Source: Escherichia coli
GTDB lineage: Bacteria > Pseudomonadota > Gammaproteobacteria > Enterobacterales > Enterobacteriaceae
Direction: 5' to 3' (one strand)
Length of the DNA: 64,000 nt
Assembly (NCBI RefSeq): GCF_030013595.1
Contig: NZ_CP122769.1
Made by a program: the position numbers and the translations under genes. The notes below the pieces were generated by a model. The model was given only the letters and a program-made list of their open reading frames with translations, did no database searches and was not told where the DNA came from. Shown in pieces: positions 1 through 12,777 of this stretch (within the stretch, counting starts at the first letter, position 1; the number at the start of each line of letters is the position of its first letter).

Positions 1-1206
1 CGTAATCCACAGGAAGTATCTGAACACTTTATTAAACTCGTTCATGCTCGAATTGCTGAAGTGTCTGGCTGGAAGTATATATTCGAAAGAATACCTGCTT
101 TCAAAGACGCTTGTGCAAAAGCCCCGAGCCAGGTTCCTTGCCCGTTTACTGGCGCAGGGAAATCGAAGTTTCGTTTCCGACAAAAAGACCTTTATACCGG
201 ATGTGCGATCCATAATGACTTTCCGGTAAATGAGTTTTGCGACGGAATTGATGTTCTGGCGAAATATTATGAATTAAGTAAAACGCAGACTTGCAAAAAG
301 ATTCTCTCAGATTTTTTCGGGATGGATCTGCATGCTCCGTTAACTGACGCCGACATTGAAAATGAACGACGCTATAAATCAGCAGTTCGTGCCACAGAAA
401 CTCTTGACCGAGAGGAAGTGGCAAAGCGAATGCGAAAACTTGATGTGATGTATCACTATACCGGTGAAATCAAGCCTAATACTCCTGTTGCTTTGTACCT
501 CCGTAATCGTGGGATCTCCCGCTTACTGAGTCACTTACCAAAGGATTTAGGCTTTAATAACCGGATCTACTATTGGGATAAAGATAAGCAGAAATCGATT
601 ATCTATCCGGGAATGATTGCGATCTATCGTGACACCCGAGGTCGGCCTCTGACTATTCATAGAACATACGTAGACAAAAATGGTGATAAGGCACCTGTAG
701 AAAATCCAAAGCTGATGATGAAGCCTCCTGCCGATATGACAGGTGGCTCAATTCAGTTGTTTGACCCTCACTATGATTCAGGTAGTTCGACCTGGACACT
801 GGGAGTGGCTGAAGGGATCGAGAACGCGCTTTCTGTTGTAGAAGCGACTTCAACACCATGCTGGGCAGCCAGCTCCGCATGGTGCCTTGAAAACGTTACT
901 GTTCCTGATTTTTTACTGCCTCCGCCGGATGTAAAATCTATAAACTTTTATATCTGGGCGGATAAGGATATTGCTAACTCACAAGGCACTCGTGCCGGTA
1001 TTGAAGCTGCTCAGCGACTTCAAAGCCGCATGGTTGAGTTTTTGGCTAAACGATATCCCGCATCAAAGCTGACAATTGAAGTCTTCGAACCAGCACAAGA
1101 TATTCCTGATGGGAAAAAGGGTATCGACTGGAACGATGTTCTCCAGTTAACAGGGCAGGATGGATTCCCGATTCACTGGGCTCCTGAATGTCTTAATCAG
1201 CTGTAA
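1..1206 (+). CDS. DNA primase-like protein (degenerate P4-type zinc-ribbon + Toprim), probably 5'-partial
   Basis: Reading frame is open from base 1; the ORF-track start at 61 is GTG with no SD. Motif CPFTGAGKSKFRF resembles the primase zinc-ribbon with Cys replaced; YIWADKDIANSQG is Toprim-like. Confidence 0.45.
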   Translation, partial: RNPQEVSEHFIKLVHARIAEVSGWKYIFERIPAFKDACAKAPSQVPCPFTGAGKSKFRFRQKDLYTGCAIHNDFPVNEFCDGIDVLAKYYELSKTQTCKKILSDFFGMDLHAPLTDADIENERRYKSAVRATETLDREEVAKRMRKLDVMYHYTGEIKPNTPVALYLRNRGISRLLSHLPKDLGFNNRIYYWDKDKQKSIIYPGMIAIYRDTRGRPLTIHRTYVDKNGDKAPVENPKLMMKPPADMTGGSIQLFDPHYDSGSSTWTLGVAEGIENALSVVEATSTPCWAASSAWCLENVTVPDFLLPPPDVKSINFYIWADKDIANSQGTRAGIEAAQRLQSRMVEFLAKRYPASKLTIEVFEPAQDIPDGKKGIDWNDVLQLTGQDGFPIHWAPECLNQL

Positions 1207-1215
1207 CAACGATAA

Positions 1216-1245
1216 CTCCCCCGCTTTTTGCGGGGGGGGTTATCT
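1216..1245 (+). terminator. Rho-independent terminator-like hairpin after primase-like gene
   Basis: ctcccccgc-ttttt-gcgggggg stem-loop followed by T-containing tract. Confidence 0.5.
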
Positions 1246-2076: not shown

Positions 2077-2955
2077 ATGAAGTTAGCTACGGACCTGGTA
2101 AAAGCTATTTTGATTAGAAATGGCGTTGAACCAGTAAATATAAGCGAATCATCTAAGTTATCTTTGAAACAACCACTGACAGAACTTAAATTCAGTTTAT
2201 ATTTGCGAACTGAGCATTTATCTCACTTCCTACCCGGTTATGTTTATTCTATAAAAGAATGTCCACTGTCATATGACATCGGGATCGAAATTCAGAAAAT
2301 CTTCGAAAGTTTACATTTGTTAAACGAAGAATTTGAATCCCTCGGTTTTGTTTCTGTATGGATAGAAATGCATCAAAGCATTTTTGAACAAAGTCGGTTT
2401 AAGAAAAGTAACTTTACTTTTCGGGAGGAAGAGGTCGAGCTTGCTAAAGGGCTTGTTTGTTCTCACAATTCACAAATAAGTAATGCGGCTTATTTCTGGC
2501 TTCAGCACTTTGAGGAGTTTATGATTTATGTTCGTAATAAGCTTATCGACCTCTTTCGAGAGGCCTATGACCTGATCCTTGGAATGCAGCAAGTATTTTT
2601 CATTCGGGAAAAGGAAGAGCTGTTGAAAACTATAAGTTATGGCGATGAGCTGTATGAGGTGAAATTCATGGCGGCTGAGCTTTACTCTATCGAACAGAAC
2701 TTAAAGTGTTCTGAATCGATAAGTACAAAATCTCAAGCTTCGGCATATATTAACCGCATCCGTGAGTTTGTGCGTTCGGGGTGGAGGCAGGGCTATATAG
2801 TCTGCCATCATAAGCGAAGTAATCAAATTTCATCATTGTCATTACCGATGTACTTGAAAGATACGTCAGGCCGAAGTGCTCGAAAGCGAGTAAAACGTCT
2901 TATATCTTCTACAGTTTGTGGTAGAAATAAAGATTTAGGTCTTACAGATTTTTAA
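2077..2955 (+). CDS. hypothetical protein, paralogue family member 1
   Basis: 292-aa ORF; N-terminal pattern DLVKAILIRNGV shared with ORFs at 3026, 4030, 7147, 8257; preceded by hairpin ccctgatg/catcaggg at 2027-2051. Confidence 0.55.
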   Translation: MKLATDLVKAILIRNGVEPVNISESSKLSLKQPLTELKFSLYLRTEHLSHFLPGYVYSIKECPLSYDIGIEIQKIFESLHLLNEEFESLGFVSVWIEMHQSIFEQSRFKKSNFTFREEEVELAKGLVCSHNSQISNAAYFWLQHFEEFMIYVRNKLIDLFREAYDLILGMQQVFFIREKEELLKTISYGDELYEVKFMAAELYSIEQNLKCSESISTKSQASAYINRIREFVRSGWRQGYIVCHHKRSNQISSLSLPMYLKDTSGRSARKRVKRLISSTVCGRNKDLGLTDF

Positions 2956-2973
2956 TTAAATTATACCCATGTG

Positions 2974-3009
2974 GGGATCACACCCCATATGGGAGTGATC
3001 CCTTTTTTT
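2974..3009 (+). terminator. GC-rich hairpin plus T7 run (terminator-like)
   Basis: gggatcac ... gtgatccc inverted repeat followed by ttttttt. Confidence 0.55.
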
Positions 3010-3025
3010 ATTGAGAGAGGATCAC

Positions 3026-3961
3026 ATGAAAATTATCGAAAAAATCATTAATGCCTTTTTGGTTGTTCAACATAAAAAAATACAGGTTAAAAACATTACA
3101 TTTTTAGACAATGGGCAGGGCATGTTCTCTGGTATGTCTTTTGATGCTGATGTTTCACTGGAGTTTATGTATGAATCAGCAAAAGCATATAGTTCTTGTT
3201 TCTTTGATATTCCCTTTCCAGGTTTTGAAGATGCAAATCTGGAGGAAATTACGAAATTTCAATTAGATGCTTTGAAGCAAAGAAAGAATCATTCTTTCTT
3301 TGTTAACCATTTGAGGTTTCCTATAGTTTTAAGGGAAGGGTGCAAAATCGAAAGAGGAGAAGTCTATTCAATTTCGAATTGCACTTATAATAAAGAAAGA
3401 TTGCAGTATCTTTTTTCTCAGGATATTTACGGTAAGTTGTATAATTCCTTAGAGAAAGAATTAAGCTCGTTTTTCTCATTTATCAATGTTGAGGTGCACG
3501 AGTTGTTAAAAGATGCTGTATGCTTTGCATTAAAAATCCTGAATAAGATATCTTTGGATACACCTGAAAGACTTATTAAAGCTTTTAATTATCGTGACTG
3601 GTATTGTAGTTACGATGTTGAGCTTTTTAGGAAAGGCTTACCTGGTCATATTCTGGAAGAGCTCATTGCTCCAGATATCTTACTTTCAGACCTTAACGGT
3701 TGTAGAAAAATACTTAGAAATGCAAAACGATTTCTAAATGGACATACACAAACCAATTGTGTTTATATTAAATATGAATGGTGGTTGGGGCCTGTTGATA
3801 CCTCACACTCAGCTAAGTTGATGTCTGACAAAGAAATTAATAACCGAAGTGACTTGAAGAATTTTTCAAAGGTCTTTTTCAAAGAGTGTTTAAGTTCTGG
3901 TAAGTCGGAATATGAAAACCATCTTAGTGAAAAAGAACATGCGCTTCGCTATAATTATTAA
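3026..3961 (+). CDS. hypothetical protein, paralogue family member 2
   Basis: ATG at 3026 with RBS agagagg upstream (ORF-track TTG start at 3011 less likely); N-terminus KIINAFLVVQ fits family pattern. Confidence 0.55.
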   Translation: MKIIEKIINAFLVVQHKKIQVKNITFLDNGQGMFSGMSFDADVSLEFMYESAKAYSSCFFDIPFPGFEDANLEEITKFQLDALKQRKNHSFFVNHLRFPIVLREGCKIERGEVYSISNCTYNKERLQYLFSQDIYGKLYNSLEKELSSFFSFINVEVHELLKDAVCFALKILNKISLDTPERLIKAFNYRDWYCSYDVELFRKGLPGHILEELIAPDILLSDLNGCRKILRNAKRFLNGHTQTNCVYIKYEWWLGPVDTSHSAKLMSDKEINNRSDLKNFSKVFFKECLSSGKSEYENHLSEKEHALRYNY

Positions 3962-3974
3962 TTAAAATTATTTT

Positions 3975-4003
3975 CTCCCATAGGGATTTCTCCCTATGGG
4001 AGA
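3975..4003 (+). repeat. 13-bp-arm perfect inverted repeat (hairpin) between paralogues
   Basis: tctcccataggga-ttt-tccctatgggaga. Confidence 0.6.
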
Positions 4004-4029
4004 AATCCCTCTATTAAGAGGGTATTGAA

Positions 4030-4701
4030 ATGAATGCTATACAAAAGTTAGTTGAATCTATTCTTGTTAAAATGGGTTTTGTTGGCGCTGTAGTGGAAAA
4101 TATATATTTGGATTCAAAACCATTTCGGCATATTCGATTTGTGGCTGATATTCCAGTAATATCTTTTCTACCTCATTTGGTGAAATATCTTAAGGGTGCA
4201 GACCATCTTTACAGTGGTAACGATGATTTGCATCCTCTTTTCATTTATTTTTCCGAAGCGGCTACATTAAAAGCAGGTCCTGTAAATCTCGCGAACTTTC
4301 GTTTTGAAGTTTCTATAGCTTCAACTCATTTACGACTGGTCTCAGAGCAGCCTGATTTGCTTTTCAAAGGATTTAACCGGGATAATCTAGAATACGTTTA
4401 TTACCGCTCAGATTTGGCCTCTAGGGATCTTATACTAGGCCTTGTTGAACACGGTTCTCCTTTCATAAAACATCTACATGGACTTATACAAAAGCGAATT
4501 TTAAACGAGTTCTCTCTGATTTTTTCTGTTCTTGAAAAGATTTTAGAAAGCGCGAAGCCACAAATTCTTGCTTGCTTCCATAGTGTTGATTATGAAATGA
4601 ACGTAAAAATAATAGCCGAAGCTATACCTGAAACTGTATCTAATCAGATAGTCACATCTGATTATATAGTTAATGTTAGCGCCAATGATATAAGACTGTA
4701 A
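4030..4701 (+). CDS. hypothetical protein, paralogue family member 3; 3' end probably truncated by IS insertion
   Basis: N-terminus KLVESILVKMGF fits family; stop codon 4699-4701 abuts the IS21-family terminal inverted repeat. Confidence 0.5.
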   Translation: MNAIQKLVESILVKMGFVGAVVENIYLDSKPFRHIRFVADIPVISFLPHLVKYLKGADHLYSGNDDLHPLFIYFSEAATLKAGPVNLANFRFEVSIASTHLRLVSEQPDLLFKGFNRDNLEYVYYRSDLASRDLILGLVEHGSPFIKHLHGLIQKRILNEFSLIFSVLEKILESAKPQILACFHSVDYEMNVKIIAEAIPETVSNQIVTSDYIVNVSANDIRL

Positions 4702-4774
4702 TTCGCCATTTGGGTTGTCCGCTCCACCCAACATGTTGTTTCCTTGAGGTTCTCACACCAGAAAGGACATCGAC

Positions 4775-6744
<1,970 letters not shown>

Positions 6745-6775
6745 TCAAATAGCGGACATTAAAAATGGCGAAAAC

Positions 6776-7080
6776 CGGCCATAAATCTTGGCGTTGACAT
6801 TAATTCTATATCAGATGCGGACAAGTTTATAAATCATGTTCGTCGCTATTTAGCAGGCAGGGTAATGAAGAGGCGGATATACGCTGAATTAGATGTTTGT
6901 GAAGAAACATCAAGTATTTCACTAGTGAACTTAGGATGCTTTACGTCTCCTCTGCTCGTTACGGAATATCAAATGTTTAAGCCACACTCTTCAGGGTTAT
7001 ATCGAAAAGCTATAAACAACTCCTTAAAACAGTTCAAACCAGAAATGCATGTACCTTCTGAAGAACTCTTTTATAATTAA
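6776..7080 (+). pseudogene. possible 3' remnant of the IS-disrupted paralogue
   Basis: Frame is open from the IS right end (6776) through ORF 6865-7080; followed by the same type of hairpin as other family members. Confidence 0.3.
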
Positions 7081-7090
7081 TCTAACCCAT

Positions 7091-7128
7091 CCGGGAACCT
7101 GCTTCCCGGTGGGAAGCACTTCCTTTTT
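7091..7128 (+). repeat. GC-rich hairpin upstream of paralogue 4
   Basis: ccgggaa/ttcccgg and gcttccc/gggaagc arms, then ttttt; conserved with element at 8197-8235. Confidence 0.5.
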
Positions 7129-7146
7129 AGTCATGAGGTAGTGTAA

Positions 7147-8085
7147 ATGTTTAAAGAATCTGACCACGTGGAATTTGTTAGTGCCTTTCTTTATCAAAAT
7201 TTAGGCCTTAATGTTTCCGCTGACGATATAACCGTTCAATTATCTGATACTTCGTTCGACAAAGTAACCTTTGATTACGATGTAGATATCGATAATTTAA
7301 ATTGTATGTTGGATCTCTACATATCTGAGCTAATAAAGCACAACGCATCTTACTCCGATTCTATTCTTTTGAAACAAAAAATAATTTATTTTCTTGGAGT
7401 ATTTAAGAATTTCGGATTTTTTACGTTTGATATTCGCGGATATAGTAATACTTTAAGCCCAGTTAAAGTTATTGATATTGTTTCAATGATTATTAATGAC
7501 TGTGAAGAGTTATCTAAAGCTAATTCTTCTACTGATGCTATAAGAAATCTTTATCTCGATAAAATGAAGGTGGATGGGAAAGTGTTAGTTGCGAAATTTG
7601 CACTTAAACAGTTTTTTCATTCCGACTTTGGTGACTTTATCTCATTTGTCGAGAAAAGAATTACAGATTGTCTTAATGAAACTTTAAGGATTATCAAAGC
7701 TGTTGAACATGGCTTTGTACGTGTAGGGCAGCATAAGATTAATCGCCGTATTAATGATGACTTAAAGTTATGCATTGATTTCAATACTGATGATTATCCG
7801 GCAAATATGCCAGATATATATATTAAGTTTAACGATACATTTGATGGGAACGGGGCGTTATATTGTGACAATGATGCCCTCATATCCCTCTATACCGATG
7901 TTGCTTCAATTATCAATGTGCCGGTGATGATGGAAGTAAGATTGATCAATAAAAGAGGGCGTGTTGTCTGTGATTCTTCGCATTCAACTTACGTATCTCT
8001 CGAAAGTAATGACCGATACAGAGTAACTGATCGCACATTACTAATAACTGAAGCTTTTGACGATTTTCGTAACGCGTCTCAATGA
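7147..8085 (+). CDS. hypothetical protein, paralogue family member 4
   Basis: 312 aa; clear similarity to ORF 8257 (VDGKVLVAKFALKQFF vs VDGQVMIARFALQQFW; ITEAFDDFRN vs VSEVFDNLRN); RBS context gaggtagtgtaaATG. Confidence 0.6.
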   Translation: MFKESDHVEFVSAFLYQNLGLNVSADDITVQLSDTSFDKVTFDYDVDIDNLNCMLDLYISELIKHNASYSDSILLKQKIIYFLGVFKNFGFFTFDIRGYSNTLSPVKVIDIVSMIINDCEELSKANSSTDAIRNLYLDKMKVDGKVLVAKFALKQFFHSDFGDFISFVEKRITDCLNETLRIIKAVEHGFVRVGQHKINRRINDDLKLCIDFNTDDYPANMPDIYIKFNDTFDGNGALYCDNDALISLYTDVASIINVPVMMEVRLINKRGRVVCDSSHSTYVSLESNDRYRVTDRTLLITEAFDDFRNASQ

Positions 8086-8196
8086 TCCTTTTGCTTCAGT
8101 CCAAAAAAGTAACTTTGGTTGGCTGAAGACACTTGTCTATGACAATGTAAAATCTGTCGCTGGCATCTTCTTTTAGCTTAACCAAATTTTTATCTA

Positions 8197-8235
8197 ACCC
8201 AGTGGGGAAGTCGCTTCCCTTCTGGGGCACTTCCT
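8197..8235 (+). repeat. GC-rich hairpin upstream of paralogue 5
   Basis: gggaag-tcg-cttccc; similar to 7083-7125 (shared taaccca, gcttccc, cacttcc). Confidence 0.5.
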
Positions 8236-8256
8236 CTCAAATTCGAGGTAGTGTAT

Positions 8257-9213
8257 ATGACACATTCATCTGATGATAAAAACTATGTCCGAGCAGTTCT
8301 GAGTTATCTTGGCATAGATTTTGATGAGGCGGATATAGTATTAAGTGTTTGCCATTGTCAAAGTGACGAGCTTTCTTTTACCTGTAATATCAAAGCTATT
8401 GAACTCAAGAATGCTGTTGATTTATATGTCGATAGTATCTCTGAGAATGAAATAGAAGCTTTAAACAGAGAATCTTTAAAATCGCGACTCTGTTACTTTC
8501 TTGAGGTGTTTGACGCAGTCTCTGGTCAGTACCTTGAAATTTCAGGAAAACACTTTGCAACTAGTCGTTTTGAATATGATGATGTTTGTAGTGAAGTTCT
8601 TAGCATGTCTAATGATGTTTCTCAGTCGAAAGGTTATGACCGGGATGAATATAACAGACTGATGCAGGTTGATGGTCAGGTTATGATTGCCCGTTTTGCT
8701 TTGCAACAGTTCTGGGATACTCATTTTATTGGACTAATAACATTTGTATCTGAGTCTATAACATCGAGCCTCTATAAAGCTTATGAAACTTTTAGTGATA
8801 TTAGTTTGGCTTGCTATAAACTGAGTGAATATTCTTATTCACGCTCTATCAACAGTGAATTGACCCTTAATATTTCACTTAAAGAAAATGACTTCTGTGA
8901 GGACCTATCTGATTGCTATATGGAAGATGAGGCTTTACCTTCTGGTAGGGTAATTTCTCGACGCAACAATGACTCCATAATAAGTATTTATGAGAGCTAT
9001 GCTGCGGCTTCTTATATTCCGATGATTGCATCTTTGGAAGTCGTTGATGAATACGGCGAAGTGGTTACTGACCTCTGCCATACCGTTTATGTTTCAGAGT
9101 TAACCGGTGGGCGGATTAAAATCCACGACCGTAATGACTTAGTATCTGAAGTTTTCGATAACCTAAGAAATTTAAATCTTGCAGTTGGAGATTCAGTTTC
9201 ACAAGCTGCTTGA
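8257..9213 (+). CDS. hypothetical protein, paralogue family member 5
   Basis: ATG at 8257 in context gaggtagtgtatATG identical in layout to paralogue 4. Confidence 0.6.
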   Translation: MTHSSDDKNYVRAVLSYLGIDFDEADIVLSVCHCQSDELSFTCNIKAIELKNAVDLYVDSISENEIEALNRESLKSRLCYFLEVFDAVSGQYLEISGKHFATSRFEYDDVCSEVLSMSNDVSQSKGYDRDEYNRLMQVDGQVMIARFALQQFWDTHFIGLITFVSESITSSLYKAYETFSDISLACYKLSEYSYSRSINSELTLNISLKENDFCEDLSDCYMEDEALPSGRVISRRNNDSIISIYESYAAASYIPMIASLEVVDEYGEVVTDLCHTVYVSELTGGRIKIHDRNDLVSEVFDNLRNLNLAVGDSVSQAA

Positions 9214-11796: not shown

Positions 11797-12777
11797 ATGA
11801 GCCTGGAGAAACGTATGAGTTATGACGATTTGCCCTATTTTCGTGACCAGATTCTGGAACGTATCGACTCGCTTAAGTGTTTTCTTTCGAACACCCCCCC
11901 GCTGATGGCAAACCTGATGACTGTCTCCACCGTATCTCGAACAGAAGAGCGACTGAAGCAGGTTAAACCCATCAGGGTTAGTGTTAAAGACGATGCTTCG
12001 GTTGAGGAAATTATTCAGGCACTTACTGACATCTGTGTGGATGACATAGAGTCATTAAGTCATGATTCCACCAAAGTGACCACTAAATACCCGGGTCTTA
12101 TCATTGTCCCAGAAAGAGCAGATCTTCTCGAAAGCTTGATCACATCTATAAATGAAGCAAAAAATGATTTTGCTGCGGCAATGAGGCGTATCGATAATAA
12201 AAAGAATGTCCGTTTTGATAAAGTGCACAAGAAGCTCCCGGGCCTTGTCGCTATGCACTCAACAAGAAATGTCCTTTTCATCAAGTCCCAGCTTAAAAAA
12301 GTTACTTTTTCATGGCGGCTAAACCGAAACCAGGAAGTTAAAACAGCAGAGCAACTTGTGAGTTTGTTGGAGCGCAGGAGAGCCTCAGAAGTAAAAAATG
12401 TAGCAACTACCAATTTGAATGTCGTGTCTAATATCGATAAGGCTTTACACCGTCTTGAATTTCACCCACTGAAGCAGGGCGAATCTTATCGCCTTTGTCG
12501 AACTAACTCTTTCCCTGTTCCGATTGCTCACATTTTTGCATTTAGGCCTGAAGGGCAGGAACGAAACGGGAATAAATATGCTGAGACTGATTATTCAGTA
12601 GTAAAAGCATCCTTGCCCATTTTCGCAGCAGGCAACATACCTCAATTAAAAACGCTCTCTGACTGGGCTCCTGAAAACAGCCAGGGCCCGTCCAACCAAC
12701 GGAAGCTGAGCCTGAAATATACAGAACTCGTGCCGGGGGCTGAGCTGGGCATTTTCATTGTCAGCCCCGAAAATTAA
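11797..12777 (+). CDS. Tus-like replication terminus-binding protein homologue
   Basis: Segment FDKVHKKLPGLVAMHSTRNVLFIK..FSWRLNRN recalls the E. coli Tus region [29 protein letters not shown] (from memory); similar length. Confidence 0.5.
   Translation: MSLEKRMSYDDLPYFRDQILERIDSLKCFLSNTPPLMANLMTVSTVSRTEERLKQVKPIRVSVKDDASVEEIIQALTDICVDDIESLSHDSTKVTTKYPGLIIVPERADLLESLITSINEAKNDFAAAMRRIDNKKNVRFDKVHKKLPGLVAMHSTRNVLFIKSQLKKVTFSWRLNRNQEVKTAEQLVSLLERRRASEVKNVATTNLNVVSNIDKALHRLEFHPLKQGESYRLCRTNSFPVPIAHIFAFRPEGQERNGNKYAETDYSVVKASLPIFAAGNIPQLKTLSDWAPENSQGPSNQRKLSLKYTELVPGAELGIFIVSPEN

Follow-up and report, generated by a model that had tools for sequence, protein, structure and literature searches.

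A conserved IncHI plasmid gene encodes a probable stand-alone primase with a remodelled zinc ribbon

The stretch of Escherichia coli DNA analysed here (64,000 nucleotides of contig NZ_CP122769.1, hereafter the window) opens inside a gene of the IncHI2 plasmid backbone, and the product of that gene is almost certainly a homologue of the DnaG/P4-type primases. Judged from its sequence, it most likely serves the plasmid as a stand-alone primase for single-stranded plasmid DNA, and we consider it probable that the enzyme is active, even though its N-terminal zinc ribbon departs from the canonical form. The gene is a conserved part of the IncHI backbone that is known by domain names only and is absent from the literature that we searched, where nothing was found on DUF7146, nor on the gene itself in papers dealing with IncHI2 and primases or with IncHI, trhI and Tra2.

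The coding sequence occupies positions 1..1206 of the plus strand. Reading frame 1 is open from base 1, as a preliminary description of the window had stated, and is closed by a TAA at 1204-1206; the end given there, 1245, lies 39 nt too far and takes in a hairpin at 1216-1238. With the upstream sequence obtained from identical plasmid records, the start codon could be located: an ATG stands 27 nt ahead of base 1, and the window is short of nine codons only. The full-length product is a protein of 410 amino acids (aa), WP_000220381.1, for which the RefSeq names are domain labels ('toprim domain-containing' or 'DUF7146 domain-containing' protein), and the window carries its residues 10-410 and the stop codon. 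Residues are numbered below after the full-length protein, and subtracting 9 gives the codon number in the window. Over its first 1,300 bases the window is 100% identical to more than 1,100 plasmid records typed as IncHI2 (conjugative, MOBH, MPF_F), with hosts among Salmonella, E. coli, Enterobacter and Klebsiella, and the gene is found on plasmids in 273 of the 5,426 complete E. coli genomes. This identity, together with a ratio of nonsynonymous to synonymous substitution rates (dN/dS) of 0.10 for the whole gene between IncHI2 and its IncHI1 orthologue, rules against an open reading frame (ORF) artefact.

The assignment to the primases is carried by the catalytic half of the protein, where family, profile and fold evidence concur and confirm both the Toprim-like region and the primase-like character that had been described before. 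DUF7146 (PF23639), which corresponds to the N-subdomain of the RNA-polymerase domain (RPD) of primases, lies at 430..732 on the plus strand (aa 144-244 of the window ORF, between the ribbon and the Toprim domain) and scores 70.2 bits in Pfam against a gathering cut-off of 27, and the Toprim_3 catalytic domain (PF13362), at 799..1161 on the same strand, scores 47.9 bits against a cut-off of 27.2. The protein also matches PHROG 510, 'DNA primase' (E=1e-27), and the RPD fold is present, with structural matches to the RPDs of DnaG and T7 gp4 covering the DUF7146 region. Most of the 3,623 homologous cluster representatives combine PF08273, DUF7146 and Toprim_3. When 148 sequences were aligned, G281, D330, G342 and D385 were invariant and E280, E283, D332, W386 and D388 at least 90% conserved, and the Toprim acidic residues, which the preliminary description had left for checking, are all intact (E280, D330, D332, D385 and D388). 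In the window they belong to the motifs AEGIENA (Glu280 at 811-813), WADKD (961-969, with D330-K-D332) and DWND (1126-1137, D385-W-N-D388). The last of these matches exactly the 'DaN-' motif, a synapomorphy of the DnaG-like primases of mobile elements that is said to mark the active ones (PMC5512222, Iyer et al.). Compared with the EGYATA motif, A-E-G-I-E-N-A keeps the E, the G and the final A and differs in the middle three positions, and the family consensus is AEGIETA.

Alignment to P4-type and plasmid primases gave the same answer. With hhalign the primase domain of P4 alpha was matched at 99.8% probability (E=2.9e-29, 293 columns), collinear from the ribbon to the Toprim domain, and Sog at 92% probability over the catalytic part only, so that primase homology is present; pairwise BLASTP against P4 alpha was not significant and profile methods were needed. 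Other searches were silent. NCBIfam had no match to the protein, and a sequence search of the PDB returned nothing relevant for the single protein and DnaG only, at E 0.1-1, for the family profile; our mapping of residues onto DnaG and T7 rests on motif alignment, with no significant sequence alignment behind it. No helicase, helicase-binding domain or other Pfam domain was found beyond the Toprim domain, about 20 residues after which the protein ends.

In front of the catalytic core lies a module resembling the zinc-binding domain (ZBD) of DnaG (aa 12-115, 7..318, plus strand), made up of three helices, a two-stranded ribbon and two further helices. Within it the motif CPFTGAGKSKFRF (nt 139-177) continues to AIHNDF and forms the ribbon core CPFTGAGKSKFRFRQKDLYTGCAIHNDF (139..222, plus strand). 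Pfam PF08273, the zinc ribbon, does not match the protein even at E<=1, and homology was therefore tested with custom profiles. A hidden Markov model (HMM) built from 80 ligand-intact N-terminal modules recognises the first 125 residues of the query (E=5e-13), and when 39 ligand-deficient modules were made into a profile, this aligned with the intact one at 99.9% probability over 110 columns (E=1e-34), stacking CPFTG on CPvHg and AIHNDF on giCntC, so that C56, T59, H80 and F83 fall in the four ligand columns. The earlier view of a zinc-ribbon-like motif in which cysteines are replaced is thereby upheld, and the profiles show that the likeness to the primase zinc ribbon reflects true homology, not chance. 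The module also still models as a DnaG ZBD fold from ligand-deficient sequences alone, and the CHCC consensus of the family aligns with the CHC2 ribbon of Bacillus stearothermophilus DnaG, at an E-value below significance.

Read along the ligand columns the protein is C-T-H-F, with two of the four Cys/His positions left: Cys56 (139-141) is kept, ligand 2 (His/Cys) has become Thr59 (148-150), ligand 3 (Cys) has become His80 (211-213) and ligand 4 (Cys) has become Phe83 (220-222). The nearby C77 and C89 are not conserved even in close relatives, and Asp82 (217-219), within the core, is newly conserved. The realigned ribbons of 203 relatives show CHCC in 82 and CCCC in 18, and in 35 a pattern of Cys, non-ligand, His and a variable residue. 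These 35 make up what we call the H-type subfamily, with the signature C-[T/S]-H-N-D-[F/Y]; what defines the group is a Cys in the first ligand column and a His in the third, while Thr or Ser occupies ligand 2 in 32 of its members and Asp stands two residues after the His in 32. Other lineages of the family carry other ribbon changes (P0019, P0020, P0161, P0174, P0175, P0181, P0193 and more), such as Asp at the ligand 1 position in P0019 and P0020 and Ser at ligand 3 in the 'GGVSNKDG' types. About 40% of the 203 relatives, a sample biased to the neighbourhood of the query, have two or fewer Cys/His in the four columns. Fitch parsimony on a rough neighbour-joining tree counts 27 changes between the intact and the deficient state, a count that is not to be trusted beyond there being more than one loss, and the ligands thus appear to have been lost more than once in the family.

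The substitution pattern between IncHI2 and IncHI1 shows purifying selection along the entire gene, strongest in the ribbon, where dN is lower than in any other segment (0.071, with 84% aa identity); dN/dS in DUF7146 is 0.06. A pseudogene or relic was considered and rejected on the dN/dS values and the conservation. The word 'degenerate', used for the ribbon in the preliminary description, holds in so far as two canonical ligands are lost, but not in the sense of decay, given the lowest dN, the conserved signature and the modelled fold that is kept; sequence and model point to a ribbon that has been remodelled under purifying selection and is not decaying. In published proteomics of IncHI1 plasmids the positional orthologue was seen by mass spectrometry in three of four plasmids under at least one condition (PMC5390554 Table S3), by a mapping that relies on gene order only (core gene #29, with TrhI #38 as the starting point of the count and the 'cobaltochelatase'-type ATPase #34 as a check).

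Such conservation invites the thought that the metal site has been remodelled and still works, with Cys56, His80 and Asp82 binding Zn2+ or another metal and Thr/Ser59 in the second shell; with three protein ligands, one coordination position would stay open, and the module would read template DNA in a different way. The low dN of the ribbon, the residues that define or nearly always accompany the H-type group, and the fact that polar, metal-competent residues are conserved beyond what a purely hydrophobic core would need all speak for it. On the other hand, zinc is not ligated by Thr/Ser or Phe/Tyr, a structural zinc ribbon normally needs four ligands, the model holds no metal, and sister lineages have lost Cys56 (P0019, P0020) or His80 ('GGVSNKDG') and yet keep the rest, and we therefore hold a working metal site to be doubtful. 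The broader suggestion that the converted cluster of Cys56, Thr59, His80, Asp82 and Phe83 is functional, either as a three-ligand Cys-His-Asp metal site with an open position or as a metal-free, hydrogen-bonded core, is put forward tentatively and is on balance unlikely. If it were true, an active DnaG-type primase would exist in IncHI-type plasmids and some 35 related lineages without the tetrahedral zinc that is regarded as essential in DnaG and T7 gp4, and its reading of the template could possibly involve the linked CobS-like AAA+, DUF3150 and CobT-like VWA proteins.

As a stand-alone primase, the protein would use its Toprim/RPD core, with Mg2+ or Mn2+, to make short RNA primers on single-stranded plasmid DNA. 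Lacking a helicase partner domain, it would work on DNA that is already single-stranded, like Sog and TraC. The substrate could be found in the recipient, as the transferred strand, in the donor, as the retained strand, or on the lagging strand during vegetative replication. The remodelled ribbon may remain a module that contacts the template or handles the primer, with packed side chains and hydrogen bonds (Cys-Thr-His-Asp-Phe) keeping it together in place of a tetrahedral zinc. T7 gp4 and DnaG depend on their ZBD to start primers de novo under the direction of a template, and if the same were true here a ribbon short of two ligands could abolish or alter initiation. A non-canonical zinc site does not, however, imply a dead primase, because Sog and TraC prime without a zinc ribbon; by this analogy plasmid Toprim primases can work without one, and the loss of the zinc site has probably not killed the enzyme. 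Altered specificity or dependence on a partner may possibly follow from the changed ribbon.

The position of the gene on the plasmid bears on which of these substrates is the more reasonable. On a reference plasmid of 241.6 kb the MobH relaxase, mobI and traD genes lie at about 168-178 kb and the primase gene at 58.8-60.1 kb, nearly opposite. Because of this map position it is not a leading-region gene, and an early role in the recipient would need transfer of the protein, the gene being opposite, and far from, oriT. Otherwise the protein would serve the donor or vegetative replication, in keeping with a Tus-like Ter gene nearby. We also weighed whether the product is an anti-defence or establishment factor of the leading region, first expressed in the recipient. 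Fusions to anti-restriction ArdC-like domains do occur among plasmid primases (TraC), and the gene sits among many uncharacterised backbone ORFs, but it is almost diametrically opposite the relaxase and mobI, and the protein has no ArdC, MPTase or other polyvalent domains; this reading is extremely improbable and was rejected on the map position. PADLOC gave no credible match, only a partial one of 14 bits (E=0.004) to the DRT 'RTasDnaG-like' model with no passing stretch.

Several points weigh against an active stand-alone primase. No biochemical or genetic data on the protein or on any IncHI orthologue were found in the searched literature. The distance of about 113-117 kb to the MobH relaxase and mobI on the 241.6-kb circle excludes early expression from the leading strand, and the protein has neither a translocation signal nor accessory domains like those of Sog and TraC. 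The AlphaFold models contain no metal and cannot decide its occupancy.

The product could also be a primase-derived protein that no longer initiates primers, its Toprim core serving some other nucleotidyl-transfer or nuclease reaction, or the whole serving as a DNA-binding or scaffold subunit for the CobS-like AAA+, DUF3150 and CobT-like VWA proteins or for the TrhI helicase, with metazoan Twinkle as a parallel. The gene follows the helicase gene trhI at the end of Tra2 (among the Tra2 genes of bioRxiv 10.1101/334409), three hypothetical genes, an AAA_5 (CobS/MoxR-like) ATPase gene, a DUF3150 gene, a VWA (CobT-like) gene and a 73-aa ORF, and this order is kept in IncHI1 pHCM1 (78% identity), in IncHI1B/FIB Klebsiella plasmids (45%) and in a metagenomic relative (40%). 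Linkage of AAA_5, DUF3150, (CobT-VWA) and primase also occurs in more distant relatives, one of them with an intact CHCC ribbon. The functional tie between the primase and the AAA+/VWA pair is an unexplained lead. That the same synteny accompanies the ligand-intact relative (P0022) shows the module to be independent of ribbon loss, and against a non-priming protein stand also the conservation of all Toprim acidic residues and of the DaN- motif, the low dN/dS of DUF7146, and the example of Sog and TraC; we regard such a protein as quite unlikely and an active primase as the better explanation.

The module of an AAA_5 (CobS/CbbQ/MoxR-like) gene, DUF3150, a CobT-like VWA gene, a small ORF and the primase gene recurs in the loci compared (L001:2917-9206, immediately upstream of base 1, and L004, L005, L007, L008/L009 and L010), from IncHI plasmids to distant metagenomic elements, and in the locus with the intact ribbon ribonucleotide reductase and RadC genes lie in between. 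The small ORF has no family match and always precedes the primase gene, with 73 aa in IncHI2 and IncHI1 (L001:7639-7860) and 57-76 aa in the relatives. A strong GC hairpin with a T-tract (L001:7866-7883) separates it from the primase gene, and for this reason an own promoter is suggested for the latter; the 90-nt gap in front of the gene shows no sigma-70 consensus. Just past the stop codon lies the second hairpin, GC-rich and, by consensus scan only, like an intrinsic terminator on both strands (CTCCCCCGC-TTTTT-GCGGGGGGG, 1216..1238), so terminator-like hairpins stand on either side of the gene.

Downstream, the preliminary description had placed the gene directly upstream of an array of paralogues. 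The array is indeed there, but a 173-aa ORF (1477-1998) lies in between. The paralogues, of about 300 aa, span 2077-9213, share 12-20% identity with the first copy and have no Pfam match; the 173-aa ORF and the array are conserved in IncHI1, and IncHI1B Klebsiella plasmids have other small ORFs in place of the array. The third copy is interrupted by an IS21-family element (4030-6744), with a truncated ORF left at 4030-4701, an istA-like gene at 4775-5947 (helix-turn-helix, rve and Mu-transposase_C) and istB at 5944-6744 (IstB_IS21, 1e-88); this insertion is absent from the same site in pSA186_MCR1. About 10 kb downstream of the primase gene, at 11797-12777, is the gene of the Tus-like replication-terminus-binding protein (Pfam Ter, 5e-19); in the reference plasmids a tyrosine recombinase and an Hha-family regulator come next, and likewise in IncHI1B and in metagenomic relatives.

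IncHI plasmids are major carriers of mcr-1 and of multidrug resistance in typhoid. If the enzyme is an active primase, they join the IncI, IncP and IncC-type plasmids in bringing their own priming enzyme, which bears on host range and on establishment after transfer. The family is besides a natural series, with intact CCCC/CHCC, C-T-H-x and further-reduced ribbons on a constant catalytic core, and this makes the role of zinc in template recognition by primases directly testable.

Compared with known systems, two defining features of DnaG-type primases are missing, the four-ligand ZBD and the coupling to a helicase, and the accessory domains of Sog and TraC are absent as well; because of this we place the IncHI protein as a variant among the Toprim primases of mobile elements rather than as an ordinary representative of any of these types. 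P4 alpha (gp alpha, aa 1-330) shares Toprim_3 with it, and the motifs PCPxxG-G.D/K.FRF, AEGxxxA and DWND line up, but P4 alpha has an intact Cys4 ribbon (PF08273, 1.9e-18), no DUF7146 at the Pfam level, EGYATA where the IncHI protein has EGIENA, and a fused D5-type helicase and origin-binding C-terminus (D5_N, DUF5906, Pox_D5), whereas the IncHI protein stands alone and is the only one of the two with two ligands replaced. A 575-aa Toprim protein of IncC (A/C) plasmids has the same DUF7146 and Toprim_3 core, and in the catalytic half the two proteins are about 35% identical. The plasmids that carry them are in each case conjugative and MOBH, and the core is also that of other conjugative-element proteins with PF08273, DUF7146 and Toprim_3. 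The IncC protein, however, has an intact CHCC ribbon (CPIHGGKDGFRLF...GGGVCNTCG) as well as a long linker of low complexity, and its neighbourhood differs, with no AAA_5, DUF3150 or VWA genes within +/-9 kb.

Sog (IncI1 R64/ColIb-P9) and TraC (IncP RP4/R751), for which we used the RefSeq Sog of R64 and the TraC of R751, are likewise plasmid-borne proteins with Toprim_3, EGxxxA, DxD and D-aromatic-N-D motifs and without a Cys4 zinc site: there is one Cys in the first 400 residues of Sog and one in the primase region of TraC, and both keep EGYATA, DxD and DFND. They are large polyvalent proteins without the ribbon-fold module (Sog being DUF5710, Toprim_3 and LPD7, and TraC being ArdC-N, MPTase, DUF5710 and Toprim_3), and neither has PF08273 or DUF7146. 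Both are described as primases that pass into the recipient and initiate synthesis of the complementary strand (PMC5512222, PMC7213743), and they act on the transferred single-stranded DNA without a helicase domain. DnaG and T7 gp4 have the same order of ZBD and RPD, but the IncHI protein has no DnaB-interaction domain or fused helicase and has two ligands replaced, and their sequence similarity to the IncHI family is below significance (E 0.1-1). Metazoan Twinkle is a structural neighbour of the IncHI protein. Human Twinkle has lost the zinc motif, the catalytic Toprim residues and primase activity, and the IncHI protein, unlike Twinkle, keeps all of the catalytic Toprim residues.
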